Below are positions 21,826-24,541 of a DNA stretch of 34,146 nucleotides, one piece after another (position 1 is the stretch's first letter; each line of letters starts with the position of its first letter). A program made the translations under genes and the position numbers. The DNA is from a virus (lineage: Duplodnaviria > Heunggongvirae > Uroviricota > Caudoviricetes). The notes under the pieces were generated by a model. That model saw nothing but the letters and a program-made list of their open reading frames with translations. It did no database searches and had not been told where the DNA came from. Where the stretch lies: the IMG/VR virus record IMGVR_UViG_2541047954_000008; one strand, 5' to 3'.

Positions 21826-22218
21826 CTACTGCCCTGTTTTAACGAAGTTTTTAAAGGAAACAACTGCCTGATAGGGGTTTGGTTGACAGCCAAACATATT
21901 ATCGCAAAAAGGCTTGATGAAAATTCTTGAGGATCCATCTTCATTTGGCATTTTACTCACTTGATAAGCGAGGAATGGACTATTTGGAGAGGGATTATAA
22001 GTGGAAATTAGCGTGTCTGTCGCCGTTTGAATTTTCCATGAGGAATTATTAGCCAACCAGAATTGCGCTCGTTTCCAATAAAAGTCACATTGCTTTTCAT
22101 CATTACATGTTAGTGGCTTCATTGCTTCTGCTTTCAACGCTGGATCGACCTTTGCTGCACACCCTCCCAACATTACTGTTGCAATCATTACACCTGCGAC
22201 TAAAACAAGTTTCTTCAT
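21826..22218 (-). CDS. AT-rich cargo gene: secreted lipoprotein, function unknown
   Basis: 130 aa; signal peptide MKKLVLVAGVMIATVMLGGC with lipobox Cys; AT-rich; terminator-like hairpins on both sides. Confidence 0.65.
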   Translation of the reverse strand: MKKLVLVAGVMIATVMLGGCAAKVDPALKAEAMKPLTCNDEKQCDFYWKRAQFWLANNSSWKIQTATDTLISTYNPSPNSPFLAYQVSKMPNEDGSSRIFIKPFCDNMFGCQPNPYQAVVSFKNFVKTGQ

Positions 22219-22361: not shown

Positions 22362-22517
22362 TTACTCCTCAGGTTCGTAAGCTGTGAAGACAGCGACCTC
22401 CGTCTGGCCGGTTCGGATTCGTACCTCGCAGAGGTCTTTCCTCGTTACCAGTGCCGTCACTATGACGGTTAAACAGATGACGATCAGGGCGATTAGCATC
22501 GCCTTTTGCTGCTTCAT
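22362..22517 (-). CDS. hok: Hok/Gef-family type I toxin (51 aa)
   Basis: MKQQKAMLIALIVICLTVIVTALVTRKDLCEVRIRTGQTEVAVFTAYEPEE, recalled as HokD/RelF-like; AGGAGAAG 8 nt upstream; in-frame upstream ATG at 22574 gives a 70-codon ORF. Confidence 0.85.
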   Translation of the reverse strand: MKQQKAMLIALIVICLTVIVTALVTRKDLCEVRIRTGQTEVAVFTAYEPEE

Positions 22518-22728
22518 AGCCTGCTTCTCCTTGCCTTTCGGCACGTAAGAGGCTAACCTACATGTGTTCAGCATGGATTGAGCCTCAGATTAATGTTAAG
22601 CGTCTTGCGGGACGCGTAATGTTAACTGGGGCTTTTCTCTATCTGCCGTTGGTGTTCATGCCCGAGGCAGATAGCCTCAAGCACCCGCAGCAATTCTACT
22701 TAACTCACGTCACCTCGCCAATATAAAA

Positions 22729-22818
22729 TCAATCAGAGAGGTGATTCATAAGAACGATAACAAGACAATAAATTGCCATTACTGCCGCAATAGCCAGCGC
22801 ACATTTCAGAACCAGCAC
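22729..22818 (-). CDS. Candidate 29-aa hydrophobic peptide upstream of hok
   Basis: GTG 22818-22816 with GGGAGG 5 nt upstream; translation (M)LVLKCALAIAAVMAIYCLVIVLMNHLSD; flanked by a 13-bp direct repeat. Below the track size cut-off. Confidence 0.25.
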   Translation of the reverse strand: MLVLKCALAIAAVMAIYCLVIVLMNHLSD

Positions 22819-22946
22819 GATGACCTCCCATATTTGACGTACACACGCATGATTCAATATGTAGCAACCTATTTCTTGCTTCAATATAAAATCAGGTATT
22901 GTTGTACAACTATTTAACTAACTCCCTATCCCCACATCTCAGGCGC

Positions 22947-23063
22947 TCAACGTCTGTGTGCGGGGCGTTTTTTAATACCTTCCCCCCAGCGGCAAATCGA
23001 ATACACCACCAGCGCCACCGCCATTGCAATTCCTACCGTTGTGAATGCTTCAGGCCAGGTCAT
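22947..23063 (-). CDS. Candidate 38-aa single-TM peptide coupled to the 171-aa gene
   Basis: ATG 23063-23061 overlaps upstream stop (ATGA); MTWPEAFTTVGIAMAVALVVYSICRWGEGIKKRPAHRR. Confidence 0.3.
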   Translation of the reverse strand: MTWPEAFTTVGIAMAVALVVYSICRWGEGIKKRPAHRR

Positions 23064-23575
23064 CGCAAAACATCCTCCGCGCTTATCAGTTCGTTCCGCT
23101 TCAGGTAGTCCATCGCCTTCTCCGGTAATTTGCAGTCTGGATTAGCTTTTTTCAGTTGACTGACCAGTCGTTTAACCCACATTGTTAATTCGCCAACTTG
23201 GTTACTGGATGCTAATGGATTGTCGGCTTTACCCAGAATGACAGCACAGCAGGCCTCTTTGAGAACCCAATCAACAGCATCTTTCCATACTCCTGTTTCG
23301 ACTGGTGGATTCTCACGCTTTACCTGTTCATAAAAGCGCACGGCTTTAACCAGTCCTTCTGATATCACCGGGGCTGGCGGGGTAGTGAATAAGGCCTGAA
23401 TCTCATAGCTCGGCCTGTCGTTGCAATCCTCTTTTGTCGGTACATATTTCCAGTCACCAACCCACATCTTCTCCTGAAAGTCCGTAACGCCCTTTTTCAC
23501 ATAGCGATATCGCCATGCAACTGGTTTTTCCTGCCCTACCGTTTCATGCCCTTCCTGATAATTAATCTCGCTCAT
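23060..23575 (-). CDS. Hypothetical protein (171 aa)
   Basis: Clean ORF, start overlaps upstream stop (ATGA); no recognisable motif. Confidence 0.6.
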   Translation of the reverse strand: MSEINYQEGHETVGQEKPVAWRYRYVKKGVTDFQEKMWVGDWKYVPTKEDCNDRPSYEIQALFTTPPAPVISEGLVKAVRFYEQVKRENPPVETGVWKDAVDWVLKEACCAVILGKADNPLASSNQVGELTMWVKRLVSQLKKANPDCKLPEKAMDYLKRNELISAEDVLR

Positions 23576-23748
23576 TCATCGCCCCACTCATCACAATATG
23601 CTTCGACAGGTGTTTTTCCTGCTTCGTAGTCATCACGCCAGGCTTCAGCATCAGCAGCACTTCCACCACGTAACTCTGCATAATCCATTAACAGTTCATG
23701 CCATTCTTCAAAACTGACATTGTATTTAGTTGAACCAAAATCAGCCAT
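23572..23748 (-). CDS. Small acidic protein (58 aa)
   Basis: ATG 23748-23746 with GGAGGA 8 nt upstream; MADFGSTKYNVSFEEWHELLMDYAELRGG...DEWGDE; below track cut-off. Confidence 0.5.
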   Translation of the reverse strand: MADFGSTKYNVSFEEWHELLMDYAELRGGSAADAEAWRDDYEAGKTPVEAYCDEWGDE

Positions 23749-23923
23749 TTTGTTCTTCCTCCTCGTCTTTTATTTCGTGATATGAGTAATTGCAGTAGTT
23801 AAAGAAAATTTCTTTTGCTTCGTCATGAATTTCATCTGGTGTTGCGTCATCGTCCACTTCGAATACATCCTCAAAATCTCCACCAGCTATTCCTGTTTCA
23901 ATAATTATTTTGAACTTTCGCAT
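23741..23923 (-). CDS. Small acidic protein (60 aa)
   Basis: Track ORF; Asp/Glu-rich (FEDVFEVDDDATPDEIHDEAKE...KDEEEEQNG); hairpin and palindromes upstream. Confidence 0.5.
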   Translation of the reverse strand: MRKFKIIIETGIAGGDFEDVFEVDDDATPDEIHDEAKEIFFNYCNYSYHEIKDEEEEQNG

Positions 23924-24067
23924 TTCACTACCGCCCTTTCGGGCGGCCTCCTGATGATTTGAGGGTACAGAAATCCCTCCGGTTAAGGATTAAATTTTAT
24001 TTACAGAACTGAATTTAATTATTCAGATATACGTATCTGTAACCTTACGAACCTACTCACTGGATGC

Positions 24068-24541
24068 CTATTTCATAAAAATAATCCAGTGGGTTTTATC
24101 GTTTTTTCCTGTTCGTTGACCGATAACAGGTTTTCTGTCGGTCAGTATCAATATCTGGCGAACAGGTATTTGCGTTTCATTCCATTTAAAAATCAGAACG
24201 CCGGATGGACGCAACACACGAAAGGCTTCTTTAAATCCCTGCCGCAAATCATCACGCCAGGTATCTTTATTCAGCCGTCCATATTTCTTTCCCATCCAGG
24301 CGTTATCACCAACACGCTCAAGATGCGGAGGGTCGAATATAACCATCGAAAAAGATGCGTCTGCAAATGGTAGTGCACGAAAATCAGCTATCAGATCAGG
24401 ACTGATAATCAGGCGTCGTCCATCACACAATGTGTGCTCTTCCTTTCTGATATCGCTAAATATCGCCCGGTCGTCATTCTTATCGAACCAGAACATGCGA
24501 CTGCCACAGCACATATCAAGAATGGTTGCCGGTGCACTCAC
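24068..24541 (-). CDS. Orphan DNA methyltransferase (DPPH motif)
   Basis: 157 aa; LDMCCGSRMF (motif I-like) then IFDPPH (motif IV-like); GTG start with GGAGG upstream overlapping upstream stop; no restriction partner seen. Confidence 0.65.
   Translation of the reverse strand: MSAPATILDMCCGSRMFWFDKNDDRAIFSDIRKEEHTLCDGRRLIISPDLIADFRALPFADASFSMVIFDPPHLERVGDNAWMGKKYGRLNKDTWRDDLRQGFKEAFRVLRPSGVLIFKWNETQIPVRQILILTDRKPVIGQRTGKNDKTHWIIFMK

Follow-up and report, generated by a model that had tools for sequence, protein, structure and literature searches.

DNA mimics such as T7 Ocr, ArdA and the phi29-type p56 are small, very acidic proteins encoded among early genes. T7 Gp2, an inhibitor of the host RNA polymerase, needs a pair of arginines in its last strand, which contacts the beta-prime jaw. 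In lambda, Ea22 has been reported to favour lysogeny (PMC10834534, PMC7093339), and Ea22 variants carry portable C-terminal domains of unknown ligand, DUF551 among them (PMC10834534). These are among the closest described systems for a chain of four small genes, here named A60, B58, C171 and D38, at positions 22947–23923 of IMG/VR virus record IMGVR_UViG_2541047954_000008, a stretch of 34,146 nucleotides (the window) that is a Qin/Rac-type lambdoid prophage of Escherichia coli. In a previous reading of the letters alone (the sequence-only reading), the two acidic products of the chain, A60 and B58, had been put forward as DNA-mimic or other anti-defence factors.

The genes are real but ordinary members of known, uncharacterised families (DUF7167, phrog_519 and phrog_660) in the usual hypervariable region of a lambdoid prophage. 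Neither A60 nor B58 could be tied to a known DNA mimic by sequence, profile or fold comparison. The account preferred here, tentatively and at a little less than even probability, regards the segment as one of the ordinary, hypervariable accessory parts of a Qin/Rac-type delayed-early operon, made up of mobile cassettes, in which the acidic pair would act as stoichiometric binders.

All four open reading frames (ORFs) are present on the minus strand, namely A60 at 23741–23923, B58 at 23572–23748, C171 at 23060–23575 and D38 at 22947–23063, and they are linked by overlapping stop and start codons as had been described. The overlaps measure 8, 4 and 4 nucleotides, the A60/B58 junction being ATGGCTGA and both the B58/C171 and the C171/D38 junctions being ATGA. 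The ribosome-binding site ascribed to the 58-residue ORF was also recovered, as GAGGAGGAAG precedes the ATG of B58. Junctions of this kind may well give translational coupling. At least six further pairs of same-strand ORFs within the window overlap by 1–4 nucleotides, so that stop/start overlaps are common throughout it and the chain by itself is unremarkable. It is clear that all four are real genes and have not arisen by chance: distant phages encode relatives of A60 and B58 at the protein level, C171 has 1472 relatives, and the 27-codon ORF that forms the core of D38 shows an excess of synonymous change.

The chain is located in the delayed-early operon with the replication genes on one side and the antiterminator Q on the other, which is the position of the ren/nin region of lambda, and it is flanked by an orphan DNA methyltransferase directly upstream and by hok/mok/sok downstream. 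At a locus 96.7% identical to the window, the order in RefSeq is a Cro/CI regulator, YdaT, a replisome organiser, DUF977, a class-I S-adenosylmethionine (SAM) methyltransferase, DUF7167, two hypothetical proteins, hokD, DUF968, RusA and Q. In near-identical E. coli prophages RefSeq names A60 a DUF7167 family protein and both B58 and C171 hypothetical proteins, with D38 left unannotated. Of 5426 complete E. coli genomes, 2634 contain some part of the region 22900–23960, and 312 of these hold at least 80% of it.

The acidic proteins A60 and B58

A60 (23741–23923, minus strand) is a protein of 60 residues with an isoelectric point (pI) of 4.06 and a net charge of −14, 19 Asp and Glu residues standing against five Lys and Arg. 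It gives a full-length match to the Pfam family DUF7167 (PF23768) with an E-value of 2.4e-14 and a score of 53.6 bits, the gathering cut-off being 24.4 (residues 2–53, model positions 1–60), and it also matches phrog_1997 (E-value 2.1e-30). Nothing sets it apart from the other members of DUF7167, an uncharacterised family to which no paper of the library searched refers. A word-indexed search with A60 returned close E. coli relatives only, whereas tblastn against phage genomes revealed proteins of the same length and 40–68% identity in temperate and Guernseyvirinae phages of Klebsiella, in Herelleviridae of Enterococcus and in one Pseudomonas phage. The positions conserved in the family include R2, I8-E9-T10, E22-V23, A27-T28, E31-I32, A36, F40 and C44, and the net charge of the relatives, counted by hand from the alignment, is about −11 in Klebsiella and about −13 in Enterococcus. 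In the Guernseyvirinae of Klebsiella and the Herelleviridae of Enterococcus the DUF7167 gene overlaps an exonuclease gene; the overlap is missing in the Pseudomonas, temperate Klebsiella and lambdoid phages, and a link to exonucleases was dropped as a general rule for the family.

The start of A60 is preceded on the minus strand (23930–23952) by AGGAGG at 23947–23952 and a 7-bp hairpin with a GAAA loop at 23930–23947, as seen in the sequence and its minimum-free-energy fold, followed by six nucleotides to the ATG. The hairpin is GC-rich with a loop of the GNRA type (GAAA, or GGCA in some relatives); in a comparison of 20 distinct variants, pairing is kept in 92.9% of cells, and one compensatory change from a G-C to an A-U pair is found. 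As the covariation score of these 20 variants was no higher than that of shuffle controls, it is thermodynamics and conservation that speak for the hairpin, and the arrangement of AGGAGG, hairpin and ATG may be a split ribosome-binding (Shine-Dalgarno) site.

B58 (23572–23748, minus strand) consists of 58 residues with a pI of 4.05 and a net charge of −12 (16 Asp and Glu against four Lys and Arg). The strong acidity that had been ascribed to the two small proteins is thus borne out. Both families have kept it, and 42 representatives of the B58 family have a median net charge of −8.5. B58 matches the C-terminal part of phrog_519 (E-value 4.5e-23, profile positions 76–137 of 143). The profile is 143 positions long because it takes in fusions of DUF1187 with B58 (e.g. 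P0269), which are the source of its N-terminal part, while B58 itself aligns end to end with, and shares the strong acidity of, the stand-alone phrog_519 proteins of 50–75 residues known from Kuttervirus, other Ackermannviridae and IncI2 plasmids. An exhaustive HMMER search of 1.84 billion representatives yielded 79 relatives, nearly all of them stand-alone proteins of 50–75 residues, with F13, W16, L20, W37, Y41, G44, P47 and W55 conserved in the family. Literature searches on DUF1187 and on the protein accessions found no functional data.

The relatives of B58 are spread over different kinds of elements. They were found in 202 phage records, mostly of virulent Ackermannviridae (e.g. Cba120 orf183), and in 561 plasmid records. 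Of the latter, 516 are conjugative, most being IncI2 plasmids with a size of about 60 kb (88% identity). In the IncI2 plasmids, the order is a CaiF/GrlA-family regulator, DUF1187, the B58 homologue, SPFH and NfeD, followed by type IV secretion genes, as at the operon head of pEC3II_1 (locus L212, 8390–10662), and DUF1187 overlaps the B58 homologue by 8 nucleotides, the same as A60 does in the window. Anti-defence genes cluster in the leading region of plasmids. In pEC3II_1, however, the B58 relative heads the type IV secretion operon at 47.4 kb, and mobC and the relaxase gene lie at 3.2–7.3 kb, a distance of about 40 kb that places the IncI2 B58 outside the leading region. In large plasmids of Klebsiella and Aeromonas, the surroundings of B58 are arrays of hypothetical genes only.

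Both A60 and B58 are predicted to be small folded proteins. The AlphaFold2 model of A60 is moderately confident, with a predicted local distance difference test (pLDDT) score of 78.9 obtained from a shallow alignment, and has the order ββαβ (strands 2–9 and 16–23, helix 29–40, strand 45–51) followed by an acidic C-terminal tail. The model of B58 (pLDDT 81.7) consists of three helices at residues 13–27, 34–42 and 47–55. Comparison of these folds with known DNA mimics, which had been proposed as a check on the anti-defence idea, gave no match, Foldseek returning nothing at E≤0.001 for either protein and no structural neighbour for B58 (best E-value 5.5). Sequence and profile searches of the PDB found no relatives of A60 or B58. 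Searches of the Pfam, NCBIfam and PADLOC models gave nothing for the pair except DUF7167, with no match at all for B58 and no membership in the Ocr or ArdA families.

Shuffled cassettes in the early operon

A60, B58, the modules of C171 and the 27-codon ORF are independently mobile cassettes that are shuffled horizontally within the early operon. In a survey of the 80 E. coli copies of A60 closest to that of the window, taken from viral contigs (more distant DUF7167 loci were not returned by the scan), A60 is followed by B58 in all 80 loci, and the neighbours on either side of the pair differ from locus to locus. The 8-nucleotide junction is kept in 96 of 97 loci. The Shiga toxin (Stx) phage ArgO145 also has the pair, in its exo-xis region with Ead/Ea22-like genes on both sides. 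Phages of Klebsiella, Enterococcus and Pseudomonas have A60 but no B58, and Ackermannviridae and the 516 conjugative plasmids have B58 but no A60. As the two genes occur apart outside the enterobacterial lambdoid phages, their linkage may mean a joint function or may reflect no more than the recent common descent of one cassette.

C171 (23060–23575, minus strand; pI 6.0) had been described as a protein of 171 residues without recognisable motifs, a description that has to be revised, since it matches phrog_660 (E-value 1.8e-70), with partial matches to five more PHROGs, and is a mosaic of modules common to Ead/Ea22-like and DUF551 proteins. From inspection of 20 relatives, it was divided into a leader (residues 1–15, 23531–23575), a 'PVAW...ALFTxPP' module (residues 16–65, 23381–23530), a helical module (residues 66–108, 23252–23380) and a helical C-terminal module (residues 109–171, 23060–23251). 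The relatives recombine these modules freely: there are forms of 119 residues without the last module and of 132 residues without the third, while others carry Ead/Ea22 (PF13935) N-termini, DUF551 (PF04448) C-termini or zinc-ribbon-like tails, DUF551 standing in place of module 4 in relatives such as P0198. At the DNA level, breakpoints in E. coli genomes are located at 23249, which corresponds to about residue 109 and hence to a module boundary, and at 23302.

Modules 2–4 of C171 correspond to the C-terminal parts of PF13935 coiled-coil proteins, and the mosaicism is of the same 'portable domain' kind as that described for Ea22 variants; C171 differs in lacking the coiled-coil N-terminus of PF13935. 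No Pfam family was matched at E≤0.1, so that neither PF13935 nor PF04448 is present in C171 itself. Searches of the PDB found no relevant relative and no sequence match to the solved C-terminal domain of lambda Ea22; matches to designed TIM barrels were dropped, no stretch passing alone. C171 would accordingly consist of modules that stand alone here but are attached to the Ead/Ea22 coiled coil in other lambdoid phages, and it may likewise act by protein binding. One relative, P0180, is a frameshift fusion of C171 with the 27-codon peptide.

D38 (22947–23063, minus strand) reads as a stop-codon read-through variant of a conserved membrane ORF of 27 codons (22983–23063), the remaining part (22947–22982) comprising 11 extra codons and the stop. 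The 27-codon form, MTWPEAFTTVGIAMAVALVVYSICRWG followed directly by its stop, ends after RWG in 119 of 125 viral-contig copies. In the window, the change T>G at 22982 (TAA to GAA) removes this stop and adds the 11 codons, and the same change was found in only one other locus. The sequence-only reading had called D38 a 38-residue single-span peptide without recognisable motifs. The single hydrophobic stretch is indeed present, and no hidden Markov model (HMM) of Hok/Gef or another known small toxin was matched, D38 giving sub-threshold matches only (DUF883_C, E-value 0.084; KdpF, E-value 0.074) and none to the HMM of DUF551, but the peptide is a variant of a conserved 27-codon gene. In the part of this ORF outside the search-pattern constraint, about 15 synonymous and 12 non-synonymous distinct changes were counted, where the neutral expectation is near 1:3, which argues for modest purifying selection. 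The gene ends to which ATGA couples the ORF are of at least three unrelated types, namely those of DUF551 proteins, module 4 of C171 and a third type. In many lambdoid prophages (loci L011–L130) the ORF is the last of the accessory region ahead of hok/sok, hok being the next gene in most. It has no RefSeq annotation, and a literature search with the peptide sequence gave no functional data. The peptide of 27 residues would insert in the inner membrane.

Possible roles of the acidic pair

According to the preferred account, induction or infection would give a single early transcript from which the whole coupled string is translated. Since A60 and B58 are too small for catalysis, their action would most likely be stoichiometric, and the likeliest course is that they bind and block, or redirect, a protein of the host or of a rival element that has a basic, probably nucleic-acid-binding, surface. 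This target might belong to a defence system or to the element's own regulation, or might be a core enzyme of DNA or RNA. Several observations weigh against this account. The folds of the two proteins are generic or unmatched. The relative of B58 in Cba120 lies just downstream of the major head gene and that of the IncI2 plasmids heads a transfer operon, neither being a typical location of early anti-host genes. Moreover, a search of the minus strand upstream of the cassette (23924–24067) revealed no promoter-like site, so that its expression timing follows only from its position in the operon.

That A60, B58 or both are DNA mimics blocking restriction-modification or other DNA-targeting defence, as Ocr and ArdA do, is quite unlikely. 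The acidity and the early-operon position on which the proposal was founded both stand, with charges of −14 and −12 over some 60 residues and acidity a conserved trait of the two families. B58 is moreover shared between virulent phages, prophages and conjugative plasmids, a spread often seen with anti-restriction genes. Further, an orphan DNA methyltransferase adjoins the chain in the window, and Kuttervirus members of phrog_519 were scored in silico as anti-CRISPR candidates by two machine-learning predictors (10.1101/2022.06.14.493971), which is no functional evidence and was the sole mention of the B58 family that the literature searches turned up. Every test for DNA mimicry or anti-defence was, however, negative or uninformative. 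Comparisons of sequence, profile and fold brought no match to Ocr, ArdA or other DNA mimics, the match to p56 being insignificant (Foldseek E-value 2.1), and the predicted folds appear as a compact ββαβ and a three-helix arrangement rather than as elongated, DNA-like shapes. A methyltransferase is the neighbour in only a minority of the related loci, and the IncI2 B58 lies far from the relaxase gene. No helix-turn-helix gene of the aca type stands beside the pair, whose neighbours are the methyltransferase, C171, the membrane peptide and hok, and the sequences of A60 and B58 are not in the supplements of two phage accessory-gene screens. As new inhibitors are usually without homologues, the pair may still have an anti-defence role in spite of these negatives. 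It is conceivable, though still unlikely, that B58, by itself or together with A60, is the founder of a new anti-defence family without a Pfam entry, a small acidic three-helix protein that would neutralise a DNA- or RNA-targeting immune protein of the host; usefulness to any invading DNA would then account for why virulent Ackermannviridae have it in common with lambdoid prophages and with more than 500 conjugative plasmids of the IncI2 type.

Alternatively, A60 and B58 might modulate the development of their own element, that is the decision between lysis and lysogeny, replication and recombination, or the expression of transfer genes, in the manner of the exo-xis proteins of lambda and Stx phages, a possibility that is doubtful but deserves consideration. 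It fits the presence of the same cassettes in the exo-xis region of Stx phages beside Ead/Ea22-like genes, the fusion of C171 modules to Ead/Ea22 in many relatives, the reported effect of Ea22 on lysogeny and the position of the IncI2 B58 at the start of the transfer operon, where it follows a CaiF/GrlA-family regulator. The overlap of DUF7167 with exonuclease genes lends it weak support, as such adjacency is missing in the Pseudomonas phage and the lambdoid phages. A role in the circuit of one element is also hard to square with the occurrence of B58 across virulent phages, temperate phages and plasmids, and no DNA-binding motif is present. Very improbable is a distant relationship of A60 to T7 Gp2, by which it would inhibit the host RNA polymerase via the beta-prime jaw. 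Gp2 resembles A60 in size and in the order of secondary structure elements and is its best Foldseek match in the PDB, but this similarity is statistically insignificant and the fold generic. Profile comparison of the A60 family with Gp2 by hhalign gave a probability of 0.3%, and the last strand of A60, NYSYHEIKD, is without arginine. A60 thus falls into the same fold class as many small inhibitors from phages but is a member of none of their families.

The segment represents routine 'dark matter' of lambdoid prophages, carried in RefSeq as hypothetical or DUF proteins, and its practical value is a short list of candidates. B58 is the best of these for experimental follow-up, since it is conserved, acidic, without a Pfam family and spread across virulent and temperate phages and IncI2 plasmids. 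Should it inhibit a host defence or a core DNA-binding protein, this would bear on phage therapy with Kuttervirus and on the spread of plasmids.

Neighbouring genes and small membrane ORFs

The orphan class-I SAM-dependent DNA methyltransferase upstream of the chain (24068–24541, minus strand) has 157 residues and matches phrog_954 (E-value 3.9e-86) as well as the PADLOC models MTase_II (3.7e-73) and oMTase (4.8e-50). The minority of related loci that possess such a neighbour was determined in the survey of 80 loci. Self-protection against restriction is a plausible role of this enzyme in its own right. Downstream of the chain, the type I toxin-antitoxin locus hokD/mok/sok (22362–22686, minus strand), annotated hokD in RefSeq, was recognised by Pfam Hok/Gef (E-value 3e-23) and by the Rfam model of sok (RF01794, 113.5 bits over 22512–22686); hok/sok comes after the chain in most related prophages. 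Between hok and DUF968, the minus strand encodes a predicted lipoprotein of 130 residues (21826–22218), the signal peptide of which ends in ...LGGC. The protein has a match to phrog_16082 and a weak one to the PHROG of the Cor superinfection-exclusion protein (E-value 0.0071), and is possibly an exclusion or moron gene.

An insert of 277 bp (22707–22983, minus strand) separates the small membrane ORF of D38 from hok/sok and is missing from most related loci. It holds a hydrophobic ORF of 29 codons (22729–22818, minus strand), VLVLKCALAIAAVMAIYCLVIVLMNHLSD, which begins with GTG at 22818, has GGGAGG five nucleotides upstream and is intact in all 12 copies, with conservative substitutions only. 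On the opposite strand, a promoter-like site (22700–22729) and a terminator-like hairpin (22949–22969) could delimit an antisense RNA as in type I toxin-antitoxin pairs; there is no Rfam match there. The two small conserved membrane ORFs beside hok/sok, of 27 and 29 codons, are unannotated candidates for catalogues of small proteins.

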